Positions 23,793-47,403 of a stretch of DNA of 52,141 bases are shown piece by piece; position 1 is the stretch's first letter; every line of letters begins with the position of its first letter. The notes under the pieces were generated by a model. It was not told the origin of the DNA. It did no database searches and saw only the letters and a list, made by a program, of their open reading frames with translations. This DNA comes from Thermomicrobiales bacterium (GTDB lineage Bacteria; Chloroflexota; Chloroflexia; Thermomicrobiales; UBA6265). The position numbers and the translations under genes were made by a program. Where the stretch lies: NCBI GenBank assembly GCA_034667245.1, contig JAXDKI010000175.1:1-52141 (forward strand). The letters are read 5' to 3'.

Positions 23793-25628
23793 TCAAGCAG
23801 CGGACTCGCTCGCTGGATCGCCGGTAGAAGGCGGGAGCGACACGACGAAGCGCGACCCACGATCGCCCGGTTCCTCGATCCGCAGAGATCCGCCGTGGAG
23901 GACGACAATTTCGCGTGTGATGTAGAGACCAAGTCCCATCCCCGACAAGTGCGGTTCGCCGTGCGCTTGATGCAGGCGGTTGAACACCGCCTCGCGCTGG
24001 TCAGGCGGGACCCCCACGCCTTGATCGGTAACCGCGAGGCGGATCCCGCCGTCATCGTCTTGCCCAAGCTCCACCGTCACCGTCCCACCGAGAGGACTGA
24101 ACTTAACGGCATTATCGAGCAGATTCGTCACGACCTGCTCGAACCGAACCGGATCGACGACGGCGTGCAGTTGCTCGGGTCCCTCAAAGATGAGCTGATG
24201 ATCGGCACCGATGTGCTGCAGCCCGACCCAGGAGCGGACGAGCGCGGCAAGATCGGTTCTCACCGGATCGAGGCGCACCAGACCGGCCTCGATCTGGGCC
24301 GTGTCGAGCAAGCGCGTCAGTAATCCGTTCAGCTTGCTGGTTTGCAACTCGATCGCGGTCAACGCGCTCTCCAGCCGCTCCGGCGCGGTCCCCACTCCGC
24401 GGCGCGCATCGCGGAGGAGCAGTTGCGCGAAGATCCGCAAACTCGTGATCGGCGTCTTCAGCTCGTGCGCCGCCACTGACAAGAACTCATCCCGCGCCGC
24501 GACGGCCGCGCTCAATTCGCGATTCCGTTCGCGGAGCTCCTCCTCCATCCGCCGCTGCTGGGTGACGTCATGCATGAAGCACCGGGTGTGGACGAAGCGG
24601 TCGCCATCCCAGCGACCGTTTGCCGTGATGAGCACGTGCTTGATCGAGCCGTCCTTGCAGCGGAGGTCAGCCGGATAGTCGTAGACATCCTCTCGCCGCA
24701 TCAGCTTCTGCCAAAAGTCCTCGAACGTGTCTCTGTTGACGTGATACTCCCCAAAGGGACGATTGACGTACTCGTCAGCCGTGTATCCGAGCAGACCCAA
24801 CTGTGCCCTGTTCGCCCAAAGAATCTGGTTGTCGGGGCCCAATTGCTGCACGCCTTCCAGAGCGTTCTCAAGGAAGTCGGCCAGTTCATCCTCACGGCGA
24901 CGCAGCGACTCCTGGGCGCTCTTGCGCTCAGCAACCTCGATCTCCAGTGCCTGCGCCTTCTGCTGCAGGAGCGCGATCGAACGCAGACGCTGCTCGTCGT
25001 CGGCCAGCGATGAGTAGCTCTCGGCAGGCATCACGTGGGAGTGGGCCGCGCAGATCTGCGCGATCGATCCACCATGCTCCTCTCGACCGAAGGTGCTGAT
25101 CGGGTAGGCACAATGGAGCGAGAACGCGTGCGTCTTCGCCAGATCGTTCCAGAGTCCTTCGAGTTGGAGCGCCGCCTCGTATCGTCCCTGGCCGGTCAAG
25201 AGCGCGACGAGTTCCCCGAAGACGGCAACGCGCGGTTGCTTCCCGGTCGCCGCAGCCGTCGCCCGTGTCAGGACATCGCCGACGAGTTCGGCAAAGCGTG
25301 CGGCGTCGGGCATGCCGTCCGGCACGCAGATCGCCATCGTCTCCGCCGCGTCCAACGAGATGTATCGCCCCTGGCTCGCGGCGTGGACGATGTCCAAATC
25401 CCTCGCCAGCAGCCGCTCGGCCAGCCCGCGCCGGTGCTCCTCGGTCGCGATGACGACGGCGGCGTCGCCCGCCGCCAACGCCGCGCCGATGTAGTGAGTC
25501 AAGTGGTCCAGGAGCGCCGGATCGGCTTCGTAGAACTGAAGGGTGTGCGGATGGTGGTTCTTGCTCCCCAAGACCGCGGGCGGTGGAAACGTTGCAGTGT
25601 GATCGCCCGGGTTAGGGTACAGACTCAT
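23793..25628 (-). CDS. Sensor histidine kinase: N-terminal MEDS-like domain, coiled coil, PAS, HisKA, HATPase_c
   Basis: 611 aa. N-terminus HTLQFYEAD...AVVIATEEH...HCAYP resembles MEDS. H-box AAHELKTPITSL. G-box GMGLGLYI. GGAG SD. Confidence 0.9.
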   Translation of the reverse strand: MSLYPNPGDHTATFPPPAVLGSKNHHPHTLQFYEADPALLDHLTHYIGAALAAGDAAVVIATEEHRRGLAERLLARDLDIVHAASQGRYISLDAAETMAICVPDGMPDAARFAELVGDVLTRATAAATGKQPRVAVFGELVALLTGQGRYEAALQLEGLWNDLAKTHAFSLHCAYPISTFGREEHGGSIAQICAAHSHVMPAESYSSLADDEQRLRSIALLQQKAQALEIEVAERKSAQESLRRREDELADFLENALEGVQQLGPDNQILWANRAQLGLLGYTADEYVNRPFGEYHVNRDTFEDFWQKLMRREDVYDYPADLRCKDGSIKHVLITANGRWDGDRFVHTRCFMHDVTQQRRMEEELRERNRELSAAVAARDEFLSVAAHELKTPITSLRIFAQLLLRDARRGVGTAPERLESALTAIELQTSKLNGLLTRLLDTAQIEAGLVRLDPVRTDLAALVRSWVGLQHIGADHQLIFEGPEQLHAVVDPVRFEQVVTNLLDNAVKFSPLGGTVTVELGQDDDGGIRLAVTDQGVGVPPDQREAVFNRLHQAHGEPHLSGMGLGLYITREIVVLHGGSLRIEEPGDRGSRFVVSLPPSTGDPASESAA

Positions 25629-36656: not shown

Positions 36657-37733
36657 ATGACGACGCCGCAATTCGGTTTCTGCGTTCCCATCTTCGCCTG
36701 CCCCGGCCACAACCTCTTCCGCACCCCGAACTTCCCGGAGCTCGACGCCGCGACGACGATGTCGATTGCCAAGCGCGCGGACGAACTCGGGTACGACTCG
36801 CTCTGGGTGGCGGACCACCTGATGCTCGGCAAGGACGAGGCGATCCTCGAGGGCTGGACGGTCATCTCCGCCCTTGCCGGCGCCACCAGCCGGGCGAAAC
36901 TCGGGATGATCCACCAGGCGCTGCTCTTCCGGAATCCAGCCCTCGCCGCCAAGATGGCGGCCACACTCGATCAGATCTCCGGCGGACGCCTGATCCACTT
37001 CATGGACTGCGGGTACATGCGCCGCGAGTACGTCAACTACGGACTCCCCTGGGACGACGACATGGAGGCGAGGATCGCCAAGCTTGTCGAGGCGACCGAG
37101 CTCATCCTCGCCCTCTGGGCAGCCGACGGCCCCCTGACGCGCCAAGGTCCCGCCTACGAGGTGACCGACGCCGTCTGCACCCCCAAACCGGTCCAGCAAC
37201 CGCACCCGCCCCTCTGGTTCGGCGAAGCCACCCCCGGCATTCTCGACGCCTGCGCCCGCTTCGGTCAGGGCTGGAACACGACGCCCGTCTCGCTGCCGGA
37301 GCTGCGGCGTCGCCTCGACCTCCTCGGCGCGGCCTGCGAGCGCGCCGGCCGCTCGCTGAACGATCTCGAGTTGAGTCTCGAAACCCAGATTCTGGTCGCA
37401 CCCGACGTTGCCGCACTCCGCGAGCGACTGCGCGAGATGGTCGCCCTCACCGAAGATGCCGGCCAGAACCTGCCGAACGAGATCCAGCCGTTTCTCGACA
37501 GCTATGCGATGGCGCCCGACTTCCGCGCCTTCGTTGATGGCACGACCGATGCACTCCCGAGCCGGATGATCGAGGACTGGGTCGTCGGCACACCTGACCA
37601 GGTCGAGCAGCGATTACGCGCCTACATGGCCGAGGGGATCAGCCACTTCATGCTCTGGTTCATGGACGCGCCGCGCACCGACGGACTTGACCTGTTTGCC
37701 TCGGACGTCATACGGCGGTTTCAGGAGGCGTGA
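36657..37733 (+). CDS. LLM-class (luciferase-like) flavin- or F420-dependent oxidoreductase
   Basis: ATG 36657 with GGAGAAG 6 nt upstream (the ORF is open from TTG 36642). GYDSLWVADHL and PHPPLWFG motifs. Confidence 0.85.
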   Translation: MTTPQFGFCVPIFACPGHNLFRTPNFPELDAATTMSIAKRADELGYDSLWVADHLMLGKDEAILEGWTVISALAGATSRAKLGMIHQALLFRNPALAAKMAATLDQISGGRLIHFMDCGYMRREYVNYGLPWDDDMEARIAKLVEATELILALWAADGPLTRQGPAYEVTDAVCTPKPVQQPHPPLWFGEATPGILDACARFGQGWNTTPVSLPELRRRLDLLGAACERAGRSLNDLELSLETQILVAPDVAALRERLREMVALTEDAGQNLPNEIQPFLDSYAMAPDFRAFVDGTTDALPSRMIEDWVVGTPDQVEQRLRAYMAEGISHFMLWFMDAPRTDGLDLFASDVIRRFQEA

Positions 37734-38524
37734 TGAGCGATCCCTCCACCGAGCGTCGCGTCGCCCTCGTCACCGGCGCCACTCGCCGCAACGGGATCGG
37801 CGCCGCGATCTGCCGTGCGCTCGCCGCGGCAGGCAACGACGTTGCGTTCACACACTGGCGACGCTATGACCAACAGTTTTCGTGGGGCGCGCAATCCGAA
37901 GATGCGCCAGCTCTACTGGAGGAACTGCGGGCCACCGGTGTGCGAGCAGAGGCATTCGAGGTCGACCTCTCGCTCCCCGAGACACCGACCCGGCTCCTCG
38001 ATCTGGTGACGGACCAACTGGGACCGCTTTCGATCCTTGTCAACAACGCAGCCTATTCGACGCAGGACGGCTACGAAGCACTCGACGCCGCGACACTCGA
38101 CGCCCACTACGCCGTCAACATCCGCGGCATGGCGCTGCTCAGCGTCGAGTTCGCGCGGCGCTGGCCGGGCGGTCGCGGTGGCCGGATCGTCAACCTCACC
38201 TCGGGACAGTCGCTCGGCCCAATGCCGACCGAGCTCGCCTACGCCGCGACAAAGGGAGCAGTCGAGGCGTTCACCCGCTCCCTCGCCGACGGAGTGGCCT
38301 CACGTGAGATCACCGTCAACGCCGTCAATCCCGGGCCAACCGACACCGGCTGGATCGACGACGACTTGCGGGCGGAGTTGTTGCCGAGTTTTCCCTTCGG
38401 CCGCATCGGCCTGCCCGAGGATGCCGCGCGCGTGGTCGCCTTTCTCGCGAGCGAGGAGGCGGCCTGGATCACGGGACAGGTCGTCCACTCCGAGGGCGGC
38501 TTCCGGCGAGGAGCGCCGCGGTAA
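37733..38524 (+). CDS. SDR family oxidoreductase
   Basis: TGATRRNGIGAAI cofactor motif. Catalytic YAATKGAVEAF. ATG 37733 overlaps the upstream TGA (GTG 37730 is also possible). Confidence 0.88.
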   Translation: MSDPSTERRVALVTGATRRNGIGAAICRALAAAGNDVAFTHWRRYDQQFSWGAQSEDAPALLEELRATGVRAEAFEVDLSLPETPTRLLDLVTDQLGPLSILVNNAAYSTQDGYEALDAATLDAHYAVNIRGMALLSVEFARRWPGGRGGRIVNLTSGQSLGPMPTELAYAATKGAVEAFTRSLADGVASREITVNAVNPGPTDTGWIDDDLRAELLPSFPFGRIGLPEDAARVVAFLASEEAAWITGQVVHSEGGFRRGAPR

Positions 38525-39829
38525 CTACGCCGCCGCGGTTGTGCGGCGACGACCGCCGGCGACCTTCTCGCCCTTCAACGGATAGGTCGCAACGAAGACC
38601 GTGTCGTCGCTGCCGAGCTGAACCAGCGACGGCAGTTCCCAGCCGACAATCTCTTCCCGCCGGCGATCGATCAGCCACTGTAGCGCGTCGGCCAGCTCCA
38701 GCGACCCGCCCTTCTGCCGCTCCCGGTCGAGCGCCGAGAGCGCGGTCAAGACCGTCGGCGAGAGGACGTAGCGGCCGAGGACGGTGCTGACCGCCTCGGG
38801 ATCGCAGGGCGGCTCGCAGCACGAGATCGGGTGGCGCGCGTCCGGTTTTTCCGCCAGGAGTTCGATCGGCCGCAATCCGTGCTCGTTCGGCACCGACCGC
38901 AACCGGGCGAGACCGTAGTTGCGGCGGTTGACTTTCAGCTTGCCGACCGCCACCACGCTGGAACCGCCTTCGGCATAGTGCTCGGTCAACTGCTGGAGAA
39001 CCGCCATTCCCGTCCCGGGACGGTCGAAGTGATTGTCGGGCAACAGCACCGCGAACGGCCGCTCGCCGATCAGCGGTCGCGCCTGAAGAATCGCGTGGCC
39101 GAGGCCGAGCGCCTCCGACTGCGGCACGCAGCTCAGGCGTTGCATCCGCTGCGCGAACGACGCGCCGGCAAACGCGGCGTGCAACCCGGCGATCTCGGCC
39201 GGCGGCAGGATCACCACCAACTCGCGGATACGCGCCTTCATCGCCTCGGCAGCGGCGCGGTCGAGCGCGGCGACAATCTGGTCGCGCGTCCACTCCCGCC
39301 ATTGCCAACCGGCGATCGGGATGCAGCAGACCGGGACCGGACCGGGTGTGCGCCACCAATCGACGGTGGCGATCACCTGCGCGGCCTTCGACCGGGCATC
39401 TTCGAGGAGCATCTGCCGAACGAGATCGGCCTCCTCGATCGCCAGCCCCGCGTCCGCGAGAACACGCGCCAGTTCGCCGTCGAGCGAGAGCCCGGCCGGC
39501 TGCGTCTCCCAGTCATGGCTCTGGCGCCGGGGGATGACCACGGTGCGCGCGGGGCGCTCCTTCTCCTGCGCTCCCGCAACCTCACGATCGTAGGCATCGA
39601 GCAACTGCGCATGAGGGAGAGCGAGAACTCGCTGGTATCCGGCAACCAACTCCCGGGACGGGCGGACCGTTCGATTCTCGACCGCCGAGAGATGTGCCTT
39701 CGAATAGCCGAGTTGTCCGGCCATCTCGCCCAGGCTCATCGACCGCTCTTGCCGGGCGAGGCGCATCCGTGCGCCAAGCGGGAGCGTCTCGACGCTCCCA
39801 GCCGGGATCGGGTTCTCTTTTCGGGCCAT
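38525..39829 (-). CDS. XRE-family HTH regulator fused to a degenerate UTP-glucose-1-phosphate uridylyltransferase (GalU)-like domain
   Basis: ATG 39829 with GGAGGA 5 nt upstream. HTH: LGARMRLARQERSMSLGEMAGQLGYSKAHLSAVENR. C-terminal domain aligns by eye to GalU (ALGLGHAILQARPLIGERPFAVLLPDNHF, LAEKP, VLGRYVLSP, LELADAL), but the G-x-G-T-R-x-L-P-x-T-K loop reads IAGWQWREWTRDQ. Confidence 0.8.
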   Translation of the reverse strand: MARKENPIPAGSVETLPLGARMRLARQERSMSLGEMAGQLGYSKAHLSAVENRTVRPSRELVAGYQRVLALPHAQLLDAYDREVAGAQEKERPARTVVIPRRQSHDWETQPAGLSLDGELARVLADAGLAIEEADLVRQMLLEDARSKAAQVIATVDWWRTPGPVPVCCIPIAGWQWREWTRDQIVAALDRAAAEAMKARIRELVVILPPAEIAGLHAAFAGASFAQRMQRLSCVPQSEALGLGHAILQARPLIGERPFAVLLPDNHFDRPGTGMAVLQQLTEHYAEGGSSVVAVGKLKVNRRNYGLARLRSVPNEHGLRPIELLAEKPDARHPISCCEPPCDPEAVSTVLGRYVLSPTVLTALSALDRERQKGGSLELADALQWLIDRRREEIVGWELPSLVQLGSDDTVFVATYPLKGEKVAGGRRRTTAAA

Positions 39830-39876
39830 CGTCGTCCTCCGTTGGACGCGCACCTCATCAGCAACCTGCACCTATC

Positions 39877-39904
39877 AATCTAACATTTGTTGACGAAATA
39901 GCAA
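39877..39904 (-). promoter_or_regulatory. Candidate promoter for the XRE/GalU-like gene
   Basis: Minus strand reads TTGCTA (39904-39899), 16 nt spacer, TAGATT (39882-39877), in the only AT-rich patch of this spacer. Confidence 0.3.
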
Positions 39905-39915
39905 GGGCCGCTAGC

Positions 39916-39973
39916 GAGACGGCAGGCGGACGGGCGGACAGACGGACGGGCGGACAGACGGAGAGACGGAGAG
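39916..39973 (-). repeat. Tandem octamer repeat of the same family (read on minus strand: CTCTCCGT CTCTCCGT CTGTCCGC CCGTCCGT ...)
   Basis: Plus strand reads gagacggcaggcggacgggcggacagacggacgggcggacagacggagagacggagag. Bracketed by CCGCTAG (39908-39914) and CTAGCGG (39999-40005). Confidence 0.85.
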
Positions 39974-40020: not shown

Positions 40021-40962
40021 TCACTCGGCATCGCCAACGCTTCTGACGTCGAGCGCATCCCGAAGGCCGTCGCCGAAGAGGTTGAGCGCGAGCACGGTGA
40101 GGACGATCGCCAGTCCGGGGAAGACGCTGATCCACCAGGCCTGCCGGACGAAATCCCGCCCCTCGTTCAGCGCCATCCCCCAGGTTGGCGTCGACGGGTT
40201 CACGCCCAGCCCGATGAACGTCAGCGCCGCCTCGGCCAGAATCCCCAGGCCGACCGCGAACGTCGTCTGGACGATGATCGGCGCCGCCATGTTCGGCAGG
40301 ATGTGCCCGAACATGATCCGCCGGTCGGTCGCGCCGATCGACCGCGCCGCGGTCGTGTAGTCCTCTTCACGCAGACTCAATACCTGCGATCGCACGATCC
40401 GCGCGAAGTCGTCCAGGTACGCCACCGCGATCGCGACCACGACGTTGCGAAACCCTGCCCCGAAGACCGCGACCATCGCCACCGCCAGCACGATCACCGG
40501 GAAAGCCCAGAGCAGATCGATCATCCGCATGATCAGGCTGTCGAGCCAACCGCCGTAGTACCCCGCCACCAGCCCGAGCAACACCCCGACCGCCATTGCC
40601 GACAGCGCCGCCAGCAATCCCACCGTAAACGAGACGCGCGTGCCGACGATCACCCGGCTCAGCAGATCCCGCCCGAACGAGTCCGTCCCCATCGGGTGCG
40701 ACCAACTCGGCGAGGCAAACAGATCGTAGTCGTCCGCCAGGGGATCGTACGGCGCGATCACCGGTCCAATCGCGGCCACGAGCGCCAGCAGACCGACGAA
40801 GACCAGACCGAGCAACGCCTTGCGCTCCCGGCGCAATCGGCGCCAGAATCGATTCCCGACCGCGGCCCGCCGGCGCTCGGCCAGGACCGTGAGGCGATCC
40901 TCGGCCGCCAACTCGCGCTGTCCGATCGCGCCGGGGCGGTCGGCGCTCGCCTCCCTAGCCAT
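40021..40962 (-). CDS. ABC transporter permease (DppC/OppC-like)
   Basis: 313 aa. GPVIAPYDP. C-terminal GDGLRDALD. 8-nt overlap with the upstream permease gene. Confidence 0.88.
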   Translation of the reverse strand: MAREASADRPGAIGQRELAAEDRLTVLAERRRAAVGNRFWRRLRRERKALLGLVFVGLLALVAAIGPVIAPYDPLADDYDLFASPSWSHPMGTDSFGRDLLSRVIVGTRVSFTVGLLAALSAMAVGVLLGLVAGYYGGWLDSLIMRMIDLLWAFPVIVLAVAMVAVFGAGFRNVVVAIAVAYLDDFARIVRSQVLSLREEDYTTAARSIGATDRRIMFGHILPNMAAPIIVQTTFAVGLGILAEAALTFIGLGVNPSTPTWGMALNEGRDFVRQAWWISVFPGLAIVLTVLALNLFGDGLRDALDVRSVGDAE

Positions 40963-41902
40963 ACTTGATCCTCGGATCGAGGACGGTGTAGACGATGTCC
41001 ACGATCAGGTTAGCCAGGACGAACGTGACCGTCGTCAGCAGGATCACCCCCTGCACGATCGGGTAGTCCTTGTCGAAGATCGCGCCGACCAGAATCCGGC
41101 CCAGACCACGGATTGAGAAGACCGTCTCGACGACGACCGCACCGCTCAACAACAGCGCCAGCTGAATCCCGGCCACCGTCACCACCGGGATCATCGCGTT
41201 CCGGAGCGCGTGCCGAACGATCACGCCCCGCTCCGAGACCCCCTTCGCCCGCGCCGTCCGGATGTAGTCGCTGTTCAACACCTCCAGCAAGCCGGCCCGC
41301 ACAAACCGCATCAGGATCGCCGCGTAGCCCGCGCCGATCGCCAGACTCGGCAGCAGCAGGTGCTCGAACCAGGCCCGCAACCCGTCCTCGCCGATCGGCG
41401 AGTAGCCGACCGCCGGCAACCACTGCAGCTTGACGGCAAAGATCAAAATCAGGATGATCCCGAACCAGAACCCGGGCATGCTGACGCCGACAAAGGCGAC
41501 GACACTCGCCACGTAGTCGACCGCCGAGTTTCGACGCAGCGCCGAGACGATCCCCGCCGGCACCGCGATCAGCACCGCCAGCGCGAACGAGAGCGCCGCC
41601 AGGCTCATCGTCTTCGGCAACCCAGTCTTGATCGCACTCATCACCGGCTCGGGCGACGAGATCGACGTGCCCAAATCCCCGGTCAGCACGTTGCCGGCCC
41701 ACTTCGCATACTGGACGTAGATCGGCTGATCTAGCCCCAGCTTTCGCCGCAGTGCCGTCGCCGCCTCCGGCGTGTACTCGGGCCCCAACATCACCACGAC
41801 CGGATCGCCCGGCACCAGACGCAGCATGAAAAAGACGAGGGTGGCGCACCCCCAGATGATGAACACCGCATGGATCAACCGCCGGAGGATGTACTGGGCC
41901 AC
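40955..41902 (-). CDS. ABC transporter permease (DppB/OppB-like)
   Basis: 315 aa. MAQYILRRLIHAVFIIWG. C-terminal DPRIKYG. GTG start with a GGGAG SD. Confidence 0.9.
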   Translation of the reverse strand: MAQYILRRLIHAVFIIWGCATLVFFMLRLVPGDPVVVMLGPEYTPEAATALRRKLGLDQPIYVQYAKWAGNVLTGDLGTSISSPEPVMSAIKTGLPKTMSLAALSFALAVLIAVPAGIVSALRRNSAVDYVASVVAFVGVSMPGFWFGIILILIFAVKLQWLPAVGYSPIGEDGLRAWFEHLLLPSLAIGAGYAAILMRFVRAGLLEVLNSDYIRTARAKGVSERGVIVRHALRNAMIPVVTVAGIQLALLLSGAVVVETVFSIRGLGRILVGAIFDKDYPIVQGVILLTTVTFVLANLIVDIVYTVLDPRIKYG

Positions 41903-41954
41903 GGCGCCACTCCCAAGTTCGAGTGGGGAAACGCGCTCATGAACGCGGCATGCT

Positions 41955-41984
41955 CCCCCTTTCCCCTAAAGTTGGGAAAGGGGG
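41955..41984 (-). terminator. Intercistronic stem-loop after the binding-protein gene
   Basis: ccccctttccc ctaaagtt gggaaaggggg, a perfect 11-bp stem, between the stop at 42016 and the permease start at 41902. Confidence 0.45.
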
Positions 41985-42015
41985 TTTGGGGGGATAGAGG
42001 GCCCTACTCGCGCCC

Positions 42016-43653
42016 CTACTTATCGAGCCACACCGACTCGAGGTAGCGCATCTCCGGGATCGGGACGTAGCCCTTCACCGCGTTCGCGAAGGCGACGACG
42101 TCGGGCGTGTGGTAGAGGAAGGCGTAGGCGACGTCCTGCGCCGTTGCCGCCTGGATCTGCTGGAAGAGCTTGGCCCTGTCTTCCTGAACCGCCGTAGCGC
42201 GGGTCTGTTCCAGCATCTGGTCCACGGTCGGGTTGTTGTAGCCGTACGTATTCCACGGCCCCTCCGAGTAGAAGAAGTTCCAGTGGCCGTCGTCCGGGTC
42301 GGCGTCGACCACGCTGCCGTTGACGATCCAGTCGAAGTCCTTCGCCAGCCAGCGCTCGTTCCAGGCCGCCTGCTGCAGCAACTCGATCTGCATCTCGATG
42401 CCGACATCCCGCATCTGGCTCTGGAGAACCTCGGCGACCCGGTTGTTGCCCTGGGCGAACATCAGGGTCGGTTTTGCACCCTTGACGCCGGTCTGCTCCA
42501 CGGCCGCGGTCGCCGCCTCCTTATCGAACGCCTGCGGATTCTCGACCTGATCCGGCGGCAGGTAGGCGAACCCGAAGGCCGGCGCGATCGCCCCGACGCT
42601 CGGTTGGGCGAGACCGAAGAGCGCCTTCGAGATCAGGTCCTCGCGATCGATCGCCTTCGCGACCGCCATCCGCGCTTCGACCGTGTCCCACGGCGGACGC
42701 GCGTAGTTCATCGTCAAACCGACCCAGTTCGTCCCCTGCACTTCGACGACCGTGACGTCGCCATTCCCCTTCAGCTGCTCGACGCCGACCGCCGGCGCGA
42801 TGTCGAGCATGTCGACATCGCCCGCTTCCAGCGCGCTGACCATACTCGACGGCTCGGGGATGATCGTCACGTCGATTCCATCGACGTGTGACCGACCGCC
42901 ATACCAATCGTCGAACGCCACGAGTTTGAACCCACTCGCGAGATCGACCCCCTCCGGCACGATCTTGAACGGCCCGCAACCGATCGGCGTGATCCCGAAC
43001 TGCTCGTCCCCTAGCTCGTCGATCGCCCGCTTGGAGATGGGCGTCAGGGCTCGGCCCGGCCCGCGGCTGCAGGCGGTCGCCAGGAACGGCGCGTAGGGCG
43101 CGCTCATCTTGATGAGGAAGGTGAGTTCGTCGGGGGCGGTCGCTTCGGTCACCAGGCTGAGCTTGTTGGCGTGGGGCGAGGCGAAGTCGGCGTTGGTCGT
43201 CCGCTGGTAGGTGTAGACGAGGTCGTTCGCGTTCAAGGGATCGCCGTTGTGGAAGCTCAGACCCTGGCGGAGCTTGAAGGTGTACTGCATCCCGTCCGGC
43301 GCGACCTCCCACGTTTCAGCGAGGTCGGCCACGAGCCCGAGCTGCTCGTCGAACTGGACGAGACTGGAGAAGAGGTTCGAGACGATCTCACCGGCGACGA
43401 TCCCGAGGTTGACCTGCGCGGGATCGAGGGTCGGGATCTGGCTGATCCCGAAACCGAGCCTCAGCGTCCCACCCTTCTTCGCCTCTTGCCGCGCGATGCG
43501 GAGCCGCCGCTCACCGACGCCGCCCGCCGCGCTCGCCTCGAAGGCGGCCAGGCGACCGGCGAAACCGAAGGCCCCCGTCGCCGCGGCCAGCTTCATCATC
43601 GTCCGCCGCGAGACGCGCGGCCCGCTCAAGACACTCCAATCGATCCGGGTCAT
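42016..43653 (-). CDS. ABC transporter substrate-binding protein, family 5, Tat signal
   Basis: 545 aa. VSRRTMMKLAAATGAFG signal. GAGGAGGAG SD upstream of ATG 43653. Confidence 0.9.
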   Translation of the reverse strand: MTRIDWSVLSGPRVSRRTMMKLAAATGAFGFAGRLAAFEASAAGGVGERRLRIARQEAKKGGTLRLGFGISQIPTLDPAQVNLGIVAGEIVSNLFSSLVQFDEQLGLVADLAETWEVAPDGMQYTFKLRQGLSFHNGDPLNANDLVYTYQRTTNADFASPHANKLSLVTEATAPDELTFLIKMSAPYAPFLATACSRGPGRALTPISKRAIDELGDEQFGITPIGCGPFKIVPEGVDLASGFKLVAFDDWYGGRSHVDGIDVTIIPEPSSMVSALEAGDVDMLDIAPAVGVEQLKGNGDVTVVEVQGTNWVGLTMNYARPPWDTVEARMAVAKAIDREDLISKALFGLAQPSVGAIAPAFGFAYLPPDQVENPQAFDKEAATAAVEQTGVKGAKPTLMFAQGNNRVAEVLQSQMRDVGIEMQIELLQQAAWNERWLAKDFDWIVNGSVVDADPDDGHWNFFYSEGPWNTYGYNNPTVDQMLEQTRATAVQEDRAKLFQQIQAATAQDVAYAFLYHTPDVVAFANAVKGYVPIPEMRYLESVWLDK

Positions 43654-43800
43654 CTGGCGCTCCTCCTCTGGGGCGTGACTGTCGTCACCATTCGCCGCAC
43701 CACCGACGCCGGGGCCGGCGCATCTGCCGTTTGAGCCGAGCGTTCTCGAGTCTGACCGGTATCGGTTGTTAGCCTCCTTTCACGAGCCGTACATCGGCAC

Positions 43801-43908
43801 GAGTCGTCAGTCGTCAGTCGTCAGTCGTCAGAACGAGGAGCGAGATCGCTCTCGTTTCCGCGATGCAGCATCTCTTCGAACTTCTCGGCTACTGACGACT
43901 GACGACTC
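43801..43908. repeat. Heptad-armed inverted-repeat element, copy B (108 bp, asymmetric arms)
   Basis: Left arm is gag + (tcgtcag)x4 at 43801-43831. The 17-nt right arm ctgacgactgacgactc at 43892-43908 is perfectly complementary to the left-arm start. Confidence 0.9.
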
Positions 43909-43986
43909 CGTCATACTGGAGATTCCTCGCCCGGCCAGCAGCAACGAGCCGATCAATTCCACGACGCGAACCGCGACCGCGTTGCG

Positions 43987-44475
43987 TTAGGCGTATGCAC
44001 GTGCTGTGTGGAAATCACGACCGAGCCCGAGCGAAACATCCTCGCGGTCGAGCGCCGCTTCCTGGCGATCCACGAGTCCATCAATGGCGGCCAGGTCTTC
44101 GCCGGTTGCCCGGAGCGCCGCACGAGCCGCGATCTCCGGCTCCACGATCAATCTGATCTCCCAGAGATCGCCGACGGTGTCCCCCGGCGCCTGGAGCACC
44201 AGGGCCAGCGGTGAGACGGCGTCGCAGGAGACGGCGTCGCGGACAAAGGTGCCGCCCCCGTGGTGCGACTCGACCAGTCCGGCGCTCTCCATCGTCCGCA
44301 ACGCCTCGCGCAACGACGAGCGGCTAACCCGCAGCTGGTCGGCCAGCTCCCGCTCCGGTGGGAGCCGACCGCCGGCACGGAACCGGCCCTGGCGGATCAC
44401 CTCGCAGAGCTGAAGCACGATCTGGTGCGACAGCCGTGAACGCCGTACCGGTTCGACGAGAGCCCCGTTGCTCAT
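43987..44475 (-). CDS. GntR/FadR-subfamily regulator, apparently truncated (winged HTH intact, FCD domain cut short by an in-frame TAA)
   Basis: 162 aa. wHTH LPPERELADQLRVSRSSLREALRTMESAGLVESHHGGGTFV. The FCD part ends at DFHTARAYA-stop, and FCD-like sequence continues in frame after the stop (see findings). Confidence 0.7.
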   Translation of the reverse strand: MSNGALVEPVRRSRLSHQIVLQLCEVIRQGRFRAGGRLPPERELADQLRVSRSSLREALRTMESAGLVESHHGGGTFVRDAVSCDAVSPLALVLQAPGDTVGDLWEIRLIVEPEIAARAALRATGEDLAAIDGLVDRQEAALDREDVSLGLGRDFHTARAYA

Positions 44476-44594: not shown

Positions 44595-44623
44595 TTGACA
44601 ACGAACTCACACTGAGATATTTG
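44595..44623 (+). promoter_or_regulatory. Candidate promoter for ppdK
   Basis: TTGACA (44595-44600), 17 nt spacer, TATTTG (44618-44623), followed by an AT-rich discriminator. About 65 nt upstream of ATG 44689. Confidence 0.4.
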
Positions 44624-44688
44624 ATTGTTTGTTATTCGAATGGTCGGGCGCGACGGCCGACGACCGATCTCCAGGGAGGTGTGCCACG

Positions 44689-47403
44689 ATGCCCCGATGG
44701 ATCCAACTCTTTCATCAAGGATCTGCCGACGATCGCGATCGGCTCGGCGGCAAGGGCGCCAACCTCGCCGAGATGACGAATCTCGGACTGCCGGTCCCAC
44801 CGGGCTTCACGATTACGACCAACGCCTGCCGCGCCTATCTCGAGAACGATCGGCGCACCCCCTCCGGATTGTGGGACGAAGTCCGGAACGCTCTCGCCGA
44901 GGTCGAGCGCCGGACCAACCGTCGGTTCGGTGACCCCGCGTGCCCCCTCCTCCTCTCCGTCCGCTCCGGCGCCAAGCATTCGATGCCCGGCATGATGGAC
45001 ACCGTCCTGAACATCGGCTTGACCGACGCCACCCTCCCCGGTCTGGCTGCGCTCTACGACGAGCGGCTCGCCCTCGACTGCGCCCGTCGCCTGCAGCAGA
45101 TGTTCGGCACCGTCGTCCTCGGTCTCCCAGCTCGCGAGTACGAAGCGGTCCTCGCCAAATTCGCGGGAGTTGGCGGGCAGACCGATCGGCTGGACCTCAC
45201 CGCCCGCCGGCAATTGCTCGCCGCTTTCACGGCGATCCCCGTTCTGCACGGTCTCGCGATTCCCGACGACCCCTTCGCTCACCTGGAACAGGCGATCACG
45301 GCCGTTTTCGCCTCCTGGAACACACTCCGCGCCGTCGCCTACCGCCGCTCCCAGGGCATCGCCGACGATCTGGGGACCGCCGTCAACGTTCAGGCGATGG
45401 TCTTCGGCAACGTTGGCGCCGACAGTGCCACCGGCGTCGCCTTCACCCGCGATCCCAACACCGGCGCGGCAGGCCTCTTCGGCGAGGTTCTCGTCGACGC
45501 GCAGGGTGAAGACGTCGTCGCCGGTATTCGCACCCCGCAGCCGATCGCGTCGATGGCAGCCGAGCCTCGCTTACGCCCGGCGTACGACCAACTCCTCGAG
45601 ATCGCCGACCGACTCGAGCGCCATTTCCGGGACATGCAGGACATGGAGTTCACGGTCGAGCGCGGCAAGCTCTGGCTCCTCCAGACGCGAACCGGCAAGC
45701 GGACCGCACAAGCTGCGATCCGGATCGCGATCGACCAAGCCGAGGAAGGACTCATCGACCGCGCGGCGGCGGTGCGACGGGTCGAACCGGCGCAACTCGA
45801 ACGCCAACTCCACCCGAACCTCGACGAGTCGCAGCCCCTCTCCGTGATCGCGACCGGACTGCCCGCCAGCCCCGGCGCGGCCAGCGGTCGGGTCGTTTTC
45901 GACCCACTTGAGGCACGGCAACGCGGCGAGCAAGGCGAGGCGGTCATCCTGGTCCGTCGGGAAACCTCAGCCGACGACTTCCCGGGCATGGAACGGGCGC
46001 AGGGCATCCTGACAGCGCGCGGCGGAATGACCTCCCACGCGGCCGTCGTCGCCCGCGGGATCGGCAAACCGGCCGTCACCGGGTGCGCCGAGATCGAGAT
46101 CGACGAGGCGAGCGGCACCTTCACCGCCGGCGAGGTCGTCGTGCACGAAGGCGACGAGTTGACGATCGACGGTTCCACCGGGCGCGTCATCCTCGGCCAC
46201 GTTCGGACGATCCCGGCCGGTCTCGGCGGCGAGACGGCGAAACTCCTCGCCTGGGCCGACCGGTTCCGGCACCTGGCCGTCCGCGCGAACGCCGACACGC
46301 CCGCCGACGCCGCGCGAGCTCGCGAGTTCGGCGCCGAAGGCATTGGTCTCTGCCGCACCGAGCACATGTTCTTCGGCGACGGCCGGATCGACCTCGTCCG
46401 CGACATGATCCTTGCCGAATCGACGAGCGAGCGCGAGCAGGTGCTGGTCGCGCTGGAGGCGCTTCAGGTCGAGGACTTTGCCGGCATCTTCCGCGCCATG
46501 GACGGCTACCCGGTGACGATCCGGACCCTCGATCCTCCCCTGCACGAGTTCCTCCCCCGAGACGACGAGGAGGTCGCTCGCTTCGCGACCCGGCGTGGCC
46601 TCACGACCGCCGAGGTTCGAACACGGATCGACGCCCACCGCGAGTCGAATCCGATGCTCGGACACCGGGGCTGCCGGCTGGGGATCACCTTCCCCGAGAT
46701 CACGGCGATGCAGGCGCGCGCCGTCTACCGCGCCGCCCTTGACTGCACCGCTGACGGGGTCATCGTCGAACCCGAGGTGATGATCCCCTTCGTCTCGGAT
46801 GCCGAGGAACTACGGCTGCAGCGCGAGGTCGTTGTCAGCGTAGCGGAGCGACTGTTTGCGGAGACGGGTCGGCGCGTCCCCGTCAAGATCGGCACGATGA
46901 TCGAGGTGCCGCGGGCCGCCCTTCTCGCCGATCGGATCGCCGCCCATGCCGATTTCATCTCGTTCGGCACCAACGACCTGACGCAGACGACTTTCGGTCT
47001 GAGCCGCGACGACTCCGGTCGCTTCCTGCCGGACTACGTCGCCCAGGGCATCCTTCCCAGCGACCCGTTTCAGACGCTCGACCGCTCCGGCGTCGGCCGC
47101 TTGATCGAGATCGCCACCACACTCGGCTACCAGGCCCGACCGGATCTCAAAGTCGGTCTCTGCGGCGAGCATGGCGGGGAACCGTCCGCCGTCGCCTTCT
47201 GCGACGACCTCGGCATCGACTACGTCAGCTGCTCGCCCTATCGGGTACCGATCGCTCGGTTGGCCGCAGCACAGGCCGCCCTGGCCTCACCAGACGGGTC
47301 CAGTTCCCTTAGCGACGGCAGGATCGAAGGCGCGGCGGAGTCGGAGCAGGAACGATCGTTTGCCCACGTCGGGGACGGCAACGCCATCGGGTATCTGGAT
47401 TAG
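44689..47403 (+). CDS. ppdK: Pyruvate, phosphate dikinase
   Basis: ATG 44689 with AGGGAGG 7 nt upstream. LGGKGANLAEM, SVRSGAKHSMPGMMDTVLNIGL, phospho-His loop GGMTSHAAVVARG, C-terminal PEP/pyruvate domain GLCRTEHMF and SCSPYRVP. Confidence 0.95.
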   Translation: MPRWIQLFHQGSADDRDRLGGKGANLAEMTNLGLPVPPGFTITTNACRAYLENDRRTPSGLWDEVRNALAEVERRTNRRFGDPACPLLLSVRSGAKHSMPGMMDTVLNIGLTDATLPGLAALYDERLALDCARRLQQMFGTVVLGLPAREYEAVLAKFAGVGGQTDRLDLTARRQLLAAFTAIPVLHGLAIPDDPFAHLEQAITAVFASWNTLRAVAYRRSQGIADDLGTAVNVQAMVFGNVGADSATGVAFTRDPNTGAAGLFGEVLVDAQGEDVVAGIRTPQPIASMAAEPRLRPAYDQLLEIADRLERHFRDMQDMEFTVERGKLWLLQTRTGKRTAQAAIRIAIDQAEEGLIDRAAAVRRVEPAQLERQLHPNLDESQPLSVIATGLPASPGAASGRVVFDPLEARQRGEQGEAVILVRRETSADDFPGMERAQGILTARGGMTSHAAVVARGIGKPAVTGCAEIEIDEASGTFTAGEVVVHEGDELTIDGSTGRVILGHVRTIPAGLGGETAKLLAWADRFRHLAVRANADTPADAARAREFGAEGIGLCRTEHMFFGDGRIDLVRDMILAESTSEREQVLVALEALQVEDFAGIFRAMDGYPVTIRTLDPPLHEFLPRDDEEVARFATRRGLTTAEVRTRIDAHRESNPMLGHRGCRLGITFPEITAMQARAVYRAALDCTADGVIVEPEVMIPFVSDAEELRLQREVVVSVAERLFAETGRRVPVKIGTMIEVPRAALLADRIAAHADFISFGTNDLTQTTFGLSRDDSGRFLPDYVAQGILPSDPFQTLDRSGVGRLIEIATTLGYQARPDLKVGLCGEHGGEPSAVAFCDDLGIDYVSCSPYRVPIARLAAAQAALASPDGSSSLSDGRIEGAAESEQERSFAHVGDGNAIGYLD

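Follow-up and report, generated by a model that had tools for sequence, protein, structure and literature searches.

What is the function of a protein that joins a helix-turn-helix (HTH) DNA-binding domain to a degenerate relative of UTP-glucose-1-phosphate uridylyltransferase (GalU)? The question is raised by a gene on the minus strand of contig JAXDKI010000175.1, which belongs to the Thermomicrobiales bacterium assembly GCA_034667245.1 and of which a stretch of 52,141 nucleotides, referred to as the window, was analysed. An initial annotation made from the sequence alone had read the gene product as an XRE-type HTH fused to a GalU-like pseudo-enzyme that would serve as a ligand-sensing domain. 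In this study, we describe the domain architecture and fold of this regulator, the loss of its catalytic loop together with the retention of its ligand pocket, the divergent pairing of its gene with ppdK, encoding pyruvate phosphate dikinase (PPDK), and a sequence motif which is specific to the locus and shared by both genes. On balance, we consider the protein to be probably a non-catalytic nucleotide-sugar sensor, with UDP-glucose as its probable ligand, that controls ppdK and its own gene.

Domain architecture of the regulator

The regulator and its parts are located as follows.

38525..39829, minus strand: coding sequence of the regulator, an HTH/GalU-like fusion of 434 aa with ATG start (open reading frame (ORF) list, GC content at third codon positions 0.83, homologues)
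39605..39778, minus strand: XRE-type HTH DNA-binding domain, residues 18-75 (Pfam HTH_31)
39491..39565, minus strand: disordered and poorly conserved linker, residues 89-113 (predicted local distance difference test, pLDDT, below 50 in the AlphaFold2 model)
39350..39484, minus strand: two-helix module before the sensor domain, residues 116-160 (AlphaFold2 helices, conservation)
38633..39331, minus strand: GalU-fold sensor domain, residues 167-399 (Foldseek, TIGR01099, pocket residues)
39290..39319, minus strand: remodelled nucleotide/phosphate loop PIAGWQWREW, residues 171-180 (translation verified)

A word-indexed search returned about 45 full-length homologues. Since these begin with the same MARKENPIP in the alignment, the ATG at 39829 is taken as the start codon. 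The upstream in-frame GTG at 39871 was considered but is a very unlikely start, given that MARKENPIP opens the homologues and that a conserved non-coding motif (see below) covers the GTG.

The assignment of the N-terminus to the XRE family stands: Pfam HTH_31 matches residues 18-75 with an E value of 6.4e-9 and 36.4 bits, above the curated cutoff of 27, and the translation of the region was verified. SinR-type HTHs are among the PDB sequences matched by phmmer, the closest solved HTH being 1b0n (E 0.003). In an AlphaFold2 model built from 46 family sequences (mean pLDDT 79.5) the domain forms a five-helix bundle with helices spanning 18-89 and a pLDDT of about 90. The following 90 residues or so, described earlier as a linker, are not a plain one. 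About 25 disordered residues (89-113), which vary in length and sequence among the homologues, are followed by a confidently modelled pair of helices (116-127 and 131-160, pLDDT 80-89) that has no counterpart in GalU and shows the conserved pattern LD..AR..L...E..L.R.M...DAR.KA...RA..DWWR in the family alignment. This two-helix module possibly serves dimerisation or signal relay. At the C-terminus, residues 402-434 form a disordered tail.

The likeness to GalU had been read by eye from ALGLGHAILQARPLIGERPFAVLLPDNHF, LAEKP, VLGRYVLSP, LELADAL and GWQWREWTRDQ. All these strings are present in the protein, and profile, sequence and structure searches agree on the relationship. NCBIfam TIGR01099 (galU) matches residues 231-390 with an E value of 8.6e-20 and 71.4 bits, 15 bacterial UDP-glucose pyrophosphorylase sequences of the PDB are matched by phmmer with E values from 3e-13 to 2e-6, and a Foldseek search of the PDB with the predicted structure has GalU-type UDP-glucose pyrophosphorylases as each of its best 50 matches (about 260 aligned columns, lowest E 8e-17, template modelling score 0.6-0.7 when normalised to the target). 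The TIGR01099 match covers profile positions 95-238 of 261, leaving the first 94 unmatched; from the fold matches it follows that the GalU core is complete and also comprises the N-terminal part unseen by sequence profiles. The domain has the Rossmann-like nucleotidyltransferase fold at about 25-30% identity to GalU, but it reaches neither the TIGR01099 equivalog cutoff of 326.8 nor carries the catalytic signatures of the enzyme. The profile combination expected earlier, an HTH together with Pfam NTP_transferase, was found for the HTH part only, as NTP_transferase matches more typical relatives but not the regulator. Compared with GalU, the helical insert after beta-3 is shorter in the fusion, and in place of the C-terminal extension of the aligned GalU sequences the fusions have a short strand and the disordered tail.

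Lost and retained active site residues

Residues were counted over 41 members of the core family, aligned with four bona fide GalU sequences, and contact residues were taken from a study of the Klebsiella pneumoniae enzyme (KpUGP, where UGP stands for UDP-glucose pyrophosphorylase; PMC11796359). In KpUGP the uridyl moiety is contacted by E32, Q109 and the backbones of A16, G17 and G114, the phosphates by K31, K202 and a Mg2+ held by D137, and R21 positions UTP (PMC11796359). Single substitutions leave little activity: 0.56% in G17A, 0.45% in K31A, 1.4% in E32A, 0.19% in D137A, 0.67% in E201A and 4.6% in R21A (PMC11796359). K202 binds glucose-1-phosphate, and substitutions of T20/R21 are given as the cause of inactivity of the GalU descendant GalF (PMC4643126).

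Most of these contacts are retained in the fusion. A173 (A16 of KpUGP), G174 (G17), Q237 (Q109), G242 (G114), D265 (D137), G306 (G179), E327 (E201) and K328 (K202) are invariant in 41/41 members, and Q237, G242, D265, G306, E327 and K328 also in 5/5 distant fusions. The loop that handles the nucleotide phosphates in GalU, P-x-A-G-x-G-T-R-x-L, is replaced by P-I-A-G-W-Q-W-R-E-W. G19 has become Q176 and T20 has become W177 in all 41 members, W175 and W180 are equally invariant, and E179 is found in 40/41. The replacement of GLGTRxLPATK by GWQWREWTRDQ, noted at the outset, was verified by translation; it does not extend to the Arg of GxGTR, as R178, the equivalent of the catalytic R21, is kept in 39/41. 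The loss of about 13 residues behind the signature is likewise real, yet its size depends on the measure. Between the AG and EA anchors every member has 24 residues as compared to 34 in GalU, a net deletion of 10, or of about 14 if judged by predicted secondary structure. The deleted segment (LPATKAIPKEMLPLVDK in GalU) carries K31 and E32. No conserved Lys takes the place of K31, position 182 being R in 19/41 and F in 16/41 members; an acidic residue at position 183 (36/41) might partly stand in for E32.

Even after proper alignment the phosphate-handling part is missing, with G19 and T20 replaced and the K31/E32 segment deleted. As judged from the alignment, the putative pocket for uridine, hexose, metal and beta-phosphate is strictly conserved, while the elements predicted to handle triphosphate and pyrophosphate are gone and a conserved Trp-rich loop is found instead. 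The WQW..W loop and the ligand-contact residues are invariant in proteins down to about 47% identity. Such a pattern of loss and retention indicates a change of function and not decay. Together with the deletion in all of the approximately 50 HTH-fused clusters, the invariant contacts and the WQW..W loop support the earlier proposal of a pseudo-enzyme that may sense a ligand. By its residues, the protein falls into the class of polypeptides that combine a DNA-binding domain with an enzyme-fold domain in which catalytic residues are lost and the pocket is conserved.

Divergent pairing with ppdK

The initial annotation had looked to the immediate neighbourhood of the gene. The family-5 solute-binding protein and two permease genes upstream and the UDP-sugar genes about 8.6 kb away, among them UDP-glucose dehydrogenase and epimerase genes, are indeed present, but they proved uninformative and the conserved partner had been missed.

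44689..47403, plus strand: PPDK gene, putative regulatory target (Pfam PPDK_N, PEP-utilizers, PEP-utilizers_C)
40021..44475, minus strand: lineage-specific inserted block between the regulator and PPDK (GntR/FCD, family-5 solute-binding protein, two permeases; Pfam, homologue loci)

The likely true start of PPDK is the ATG at 44689, which is preceded by GGGAGG; tblastn alignments begin at residues 16-23. A survey of the genomic neighbourhoods of homologues, one of the checks suggested earlier, revealed that the regulator is divergent from PPDK across a spacer of 290-365 bp in five lineages, represented by P0003 (84% identity), P0019 (55%), P0020 (54%), P0029 (48%) and P0028/L001 (47%) and found at loci L082, L085, L086/L001, L088 and on the P0003 contig. 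In the window and in its relative L081 (80% identity) PPDK is nearby but split off by a block of GntR and ATP-binding cassette (ABC) transporter genes. This block is absent between PPDK and the regulator in the five homologue lineages, and in L081 a different, fragmented block with permease pieces of about 118 aa stands at the same place. The ABC/GntR block is a lineage-specific insertion, and PPDK is the conserved partner of the regulator. Both blocks look like decaying insertions. On the far side of PPDK, the UDP-sugar cluster recurs in L082, L088, the P0003 contig and the window, but not in L085/L086.

Two observations bear on the direction in which PPDK may work. A pyruvate kinase gene lies near the L082 locus, which suggests that PPDK is not needed there in the glycolytic direction and fits a gluconeogenic role. 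Moreover, in a distant clade (P0046) the fusion gene is transcribed divergently from the gene for a class V fructose-1,6-bisphosphate (FBP) aldolase/phosphatase (PF01950), another gluconeogenic enzyme (L089:8349-11326).

A motif shared by both genes

39868..39888, minus strand: operator-like motif AAATGTTAGATTGATAGGTGC, candidate autoregulatory site, 39-59 nt upstream of the regulator ATG
44615..44635, plus strand: second motif copy AGATATTTGATTGTTTGTTAT, 54-74 nt upstream of the PPDK start

In an alignment of six loci, the 100 nt upstream of the regulator contain one conserved block, AAATGTTAGATTG(T/A)TAG(A/G)T. A AAATGTTAGATTGWTAG-like 21-bp motif occurs exactly twice in the 52 kb of the window, upstream of the regulator and, 4.8 kb away, upstream of PPDK. 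To score such sites, a first position weight matrix (PWM) was built from the six regulator-side sites only and scanned on both strands of each full locus. The PPDK-side site was the second-best match in 6/6 loci, each time on the PPDK strand, with 18.6-24.6 bits as compared to 6-15 bits elsewhere; in the window it scored 23.6 bits and the next match 9.9. A leave-out PWM, made of the eight sites of four distant loci and containing no sequence of the window or L081, ranked 44615-44635 first in the window (30.0 bits) and 39868-39888 second (26.8 bits), with the next unrelated match at 10.1 bits and a maximum of 20.5 bits in 200 first-order Markov simulations of the window. The 11-mer core TWGATTGWTWG is found twice in the window, where 0.03 occurrences are expected. 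No other strong site was detected in approximately 150 kb of the loci analysed, which argues for a local and not a global factor.

The motif consists of two tandem 8-bp units, TGTTAGAT-TGTTAGAT (consensus A-TGTTAGAT-TGTTAGAT), and reads TGATTGAT-TGTTTGTT on the PPDK side. Read by eye, the PPDK-side copy seems to overlap, and extend downstream of, a promoter-like arrangement TTGACA-N17-TATTTG, which has the general form TTGACA-N17-TAnnnn at the PPDK side, and the regulator-side copy holds a hexamer TAGATT 16 nt after TTGCTA that may likewise be promoter-like. A terminator-like hairpin is located just upstream of the regulator-side motif:

39907..39923, minus strand: terminator-like hairpin after the last permease gene (terminator scan, 1 found versus 0.1 expected)

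Lying as it does between this permease gene and the motif, the hairpin suggests a separate promoter for the regulator. A metagenome scan with the operator 17-mer did not extend the regulon: the 120 stretches retrieved were essentially all chance matches in AT-rich contigs (median GC content 36% for the first 80 loci). None encodes the regulator and one carries an unrelated PPDK fragment; the single match in a 66%-GC contig (L214) lies upstream of a TonB-dependent receptor gene.

Proposed mechanism and alternative explanations

According to the model we favour, the protein would be a one-component transcription factor whose N-terminal XRE HTH binds the AT-rich tandem site of about 21 bp at two promoters, its own and that of ppdK. 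The C-terminal GalU domain would no longer synthesise UDP-glucose but would bind a UDP-hexose, most probably UDP-glucose with Mg2+ or else a close UDP-sugar, as a read-out of the hexose and sugar-nucleotide pool; the two-helix module would couple this signal to DNA binding. Repression appears the most likely mode, since the motif sites overlap the core promoter regions as these were read by eye. A plentiful stock of sugar nucleotides would shut the ppdK and regulator genes, and a need for gluconeogenic phosphoenolpyruvate (PEP) would release them, in the manner of an end-product feedback.

Several observations weigh against this model. The motif is a direct repeat, and most XRE dimers bind inverted repeats; a strict sigma-70 scanner called no promoter at either motif site; and another factor could bind the motif. 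The adjacency to PPDK comes from five lineages that are all metagenome-assembled genomes (MAGs) or metagenome contigs of one bacterial order. Residual or altered catalysis is conceivable, because the family still has R178, K328 and the Mg ligand D265, and the acidic residue at 183 or E179 could replace E32. As E32 contacts the uridyl moiety in GalU, the nucleotide specificity may have shifted. Finally, other subfamilies of the fusion adjoin unrelated genes, so the gluconeogenic link would be subfamily-specific and silent on the ligand in general.

The same regulator with the same ppdK target might respond to another ligand, such as UTP or UDP, glucose-1-phosphate, UDP-glucuronate or another product of the UDP-sugar cluster, or a different NDP-sugar. 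We regard this as unlikely, though it is the deletion of the uridyl contact E32 and of the phosphate contact K31, together with the three new invariant Trp residues, that makes it worth weighing. Also in its favour, PPDK has genes for UDP-glucose dehydrogenase and epimerases at its side in the window, in L082 and L088 and on the P0003 contig. The residues that read uracil (Q237 and the backbones of G242, A173 and G174) and glucose (E327, G306) are, however, invariant, L085/L086 lack an adjacent UDP-sugar cluster, and the motif has no copy in the vicinity of the cluster. A bifunctional enzyme-regulator in the manner of BirA or NadR, in which nucleotidyl transfer persists with possibly altered chemistry, is improbable in our judgement. 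R178, D265, K328 and E327 are there to support it, conserved acidic residues are found close to the loop with E179 and D/E183, and even GalF still has trace activity (PMC4643126). Yet the whole K31/E32 segment is gone and G19/T20 are exchanged for bulky Q/W, whereas a single Ala at K31, E32 or G17 suffices to leave less than 1.5% activity (PMC11796359). The score of 71 bits is also far from the GalU equivalog cutoff of 327, no fusion of the superfamily has a canonical loop, and the GalU C-terminal extension is missing, while tetramerization is reported to be essential for the function of bacterial UGP (PMC11796359).

It is quite unlikely, by our estimate, that the motif is not the operator of the regulator but a promoter element, the site of another factor or an RNA signal in the 5' untranslated region, with the fusion regulating something else, for instance the ABC transporter. 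Both copies have the same orientation relative to their downstream genes, as an RNA signal would, and the motif is AT-rich like a -10 element; but a conserved length of 17-21 bp exceeds a -10 hexamer, and a promoter element or global site would be expected to recur in the approximately 150 kb where it was found nowhere else. The motif was also examined as an RNA element and rejected as such, having no Rfam match and leaders that fold no better than shuffled sequences (z about 0). It also counts against this alternative that the regulator itself is the only conserved neighbour carrying the motif. The adjacent family-5 ABC transporter owes its candidacy as target to the position of the regulator gene directly after the permease genes in the window; it was rejected, as the block is absent in five lineages, degraded into fragments in L081 and free of the motif. 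Very improbable, lastly, is a regulator of a conflict, defence or mobile-element module. The neighbourhoods of two other fusions (P0127, with Prok-RING/E1/JAB/AAA/Pup-ligase and CHAT genes, and P0244, with relaxase and primase genes; see below) point in that direction, and the PADLOC HTH models HTH_VI, capH and RmrA match the HTH. These matches cover the generic HTH only and leave the sensor domain unmatched, no defence or mobility genes were found near the regulator in the window or in the five syntenic lineages, and the partner there is PPDK. The UDP-sugar-sensing regulator of ppdK and of its own gene remains the reading to which we give preference.

Distribution of the fused family

Nearly all of the approximately 45 full-length fusions stem from metagenomes. 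Among them is an entry called 'XRE family transcriptional regulator [Thermomicrobiales bacterium]', and automatic JGI names read 'dTDP-glucose pyrophosphorylase/transcriptional regulator with XRE-family HTH domain'. An exhaustive profile search of 1.84 billion representatives gave 171 matches at E ≤ 1e-30. In this collection the whole subfamily of the window is one 50%-identity representative, P0019, and about 50 further full-length HTH plus GalU-like clusters are found. When 52 fusions were aligned with GalU, both the PATKxxPKEMLPLVD segment and the G-T of GxGTR were missing from all of them. Their loops typically read AGWQxRLL or AGGQHRLL, and Q, GLGxA, LPDD, YG, EKP and GRY are kept in nearly all. 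As none of the aligned HTH-fused clusters has an intact catalytic loop, its loss is ancestral to the fused superfamily and stably maintained. Among the matches listed from 185,579 species-representative genomes, there is at least one full-length member of the window's subfamily, L001, in a Sphaerobacteraceae MAG of the class Thermomicrobia, which is the same locus type as L086. Another match, L004, on a 'Klebsiella' MAG contig (match to residues 73-399), was considered as a distant fusion and rejected, being an ordinary GalU of 292 aa. Five proteins of about 280-310 aa (P0150, P0151, P0153, P0167 and P0179) match the profile from about residue 116-134 onwards and consist of the two-helix module and the sensor domain without HTH; they may be stand-alone versions or truncated gene calls.

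The other subfamilies have diverse neighbours. P0127 is divergent from a Prok-RING_1/ThiF-E1/Prok-JAB/AAA/Pup-ligase cluster, followed by two small ORFs and a CHAT protease gene (L094:1-12907, L095). This context resembles ubiquitin-like conjugation and conflict systems, and the same sensor domain may control non-metabolic modules. P0244 resides on a mobile element with relaxase, primase and TrwB-like genes (L096:2297-14554), P0051 is directly upstream of a multi-GAF histidine kinase and response regulators, and P0045 (L091) has a HEAT-repeat insertion and adjoins a HEAT-repeat protein gene. A more far-reaching interpretation, which we put forward with considerable doubt, is that the regulator is the founding example of an unrecognised superfamily of bacterial one-component regulators with a catalytically dead GalU sensor, in which UDP-glucose, sensed directly, exerts feedback on gluconeogenic PEP synthesis (ppdK) in Thermomicrobia-type bacteria and sister proteins switch on ubiquitin-like/CHAT conflict genes and mobile-element genes. 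If this were true, nucleotide-sugar levels would be a more general intracellular signal than is now appreciated.

Relation to known regulators and enzymes

The closest known relative is GalU itself (EC 2.7.7.9; TIGR01099; PDB 3JUK, 8F73, 2E3D), which has the same fold over the whole enzyme core and shares the contact motifs Q, GLGHA, LPD, YG, EKP and GRY. The fusion differs from it by GWQWR in place of GxGTR, the absence of the PKE segment (K31/E32), and the N-terminal HTH and two-helix module. GalF offers a parallel, as it descends from GalU and was inactivated by substitutions within the GxGTR loop, and a non-catalytic role has been suggested for it (PMC4643126, PMC11796359). GalF is nevertheless a stand-alone protein 57% identical to GalU, in which T20/R21 are changed to M/H and K31/E32 are kept and which has no DNA-binding domain; the fusion, in contrast, keeps the Arg, is without the K/E segment and carries an HTH, and it does not belong to the GalF type. 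Its loss of catalytic elements is independent of that of GalF and had a different outcome, and the fused family would represent a second route from GalU to a non-enzyme.

The design of an HTH joined to a metabolic-enzyme fold reused as sensor is shared with several regulators whose sensor domains are unrelated in sequence and fold. In MocR/GabR a GntR-type HTH is combined with an aminotransferase fold and in the ROK regulators NagC and Mlc an HTH with a sugar-kinase fold; NadR and BirA join an HTH to an active enzyme. We know of no characterised regulator with a sugar-nucleotide pyrophosphorylase fold, and this fold would now be added to the enzyme folds recruited as sensor domains. In our literature searches, neither the architecture nor a comparable regulator of ppdK was described, and no bacterial transcription factor that binds UDP-glucose came up. 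The initial annotation was in this respect correct that no characterised regulator of the type is on record, but in metagenomes such fusions are not rare. The direct-repeat motif has a precedent in SinR, whose sites comprise tandem as well as inverted repeats, although the small additional domain of SinR serves oligomerisation and its control is exerted by antagonist proteins instead of an enzyme-like ligand domain.

In its proposed role the regulator parallels Cra/FruR (LacI family), CcpN (HTH plus CBS domains) and the archaeal TrmB/Tgr, unrelated proteins that exert metabolite-responsive control over PEP-forming and FBP-phosphatase-type genes. Their effectors are fructose phosphates, ATP/ADP and maltose-type sugars, and to our knowledge none of them senses a nucleotide sugar. 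UDP-glucose stands at the junction of central carbon metabolism and the synthesis of envelope and polysaccharides and has long been suspected to be an intracellular signal in bacteria. One example is cell-size control by way of UgtP/OpgH (PMC3723540), and UDP-glucose was reportedly linked to sigma-S control in Escherichia coli in an old proposal. We are aware of no dedicated UDP-glucose-sensing transcription factor, nor of a described regulator of gluconeogenic genes in Thermomicrobia/Chloroflexota-type bacteria, and our literature searches yielded neither. The protein described here is a concrete candidate for such a factor, for which a ligand, two 21-bp sites and a target gene are predicted, and it may provide a regulatory handle on gluconeogenesis in these bacteria.

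Neighbouring genes and minor features

The remaining genes around the regulator are the following.

52110-47477, minus strand: three epimerase/dehydratase genes and a UDP-glucose dehydrogenase gene (Pfam map)
43987-44475, minus strand: GntR/FCD gene (Pfam)
43653-40021, minus strand: family-5 solute-binding protein and two permeases (Pfam)
37730-38524, plus strand: convergent short-chain dehydrogenase/reductase (SDR) gene, ending on the base that adjoins the last stop-codon base of the regulator, 38525

The junction 38524/38525 between the SDR and regulator genes leaves no intergenic room for terminators. A luciferase-like oxidoreductase gene is situated beyond the SDR gene, and in several homologous loci SDR and luciferase-like genes are again found no more than about 10 kb from the regulator. 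The inserted block of the window (40021-44475) has no adjoining ATPase gene, and its GntR ORF of 162 aa, in which FCD is matched over positions 1-58 of 125, is probably truncated.

Several repeats were observed in the non-coding regions. Just upstream of the operator-like motif, a tandem array at 39917-39970 is built of an 8/16-nt unit, AGACGGAC / CAGACGGACGGGCGGA, in about 7 or 2.5 copies; in L081 this place is taken by another simple repeat, GCCGCCTC. Between the binding-protein and GntR genes lie two perfect heptamer arrays, 43802-43831 (AGTCGTC, 4.3 copies) and 43891-43907 (ACTGACG, 2.4 copies), which are mutual reverse complements and could form a long hairpin. In the distant clade of P0046, the 518-bp spacer of L089 was examined for a shared motif and showed only a local tandem 19-mer, CTTGAGCGTTCAGCAATGT / CTTGAGCGCTCAGGTATGT, with the palindrome TGAGCGCTCA near the start of the FBP phosphatase gene; in this one independent sequence the 19-mer could be the operator of the clade. 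Elsewhere in the window, at 23793-25628, a MEDS-PAS histidine kinase gene (MEDS, PAS, HisKA and HATPase domains) was noted, which is unrelated to the regulator.

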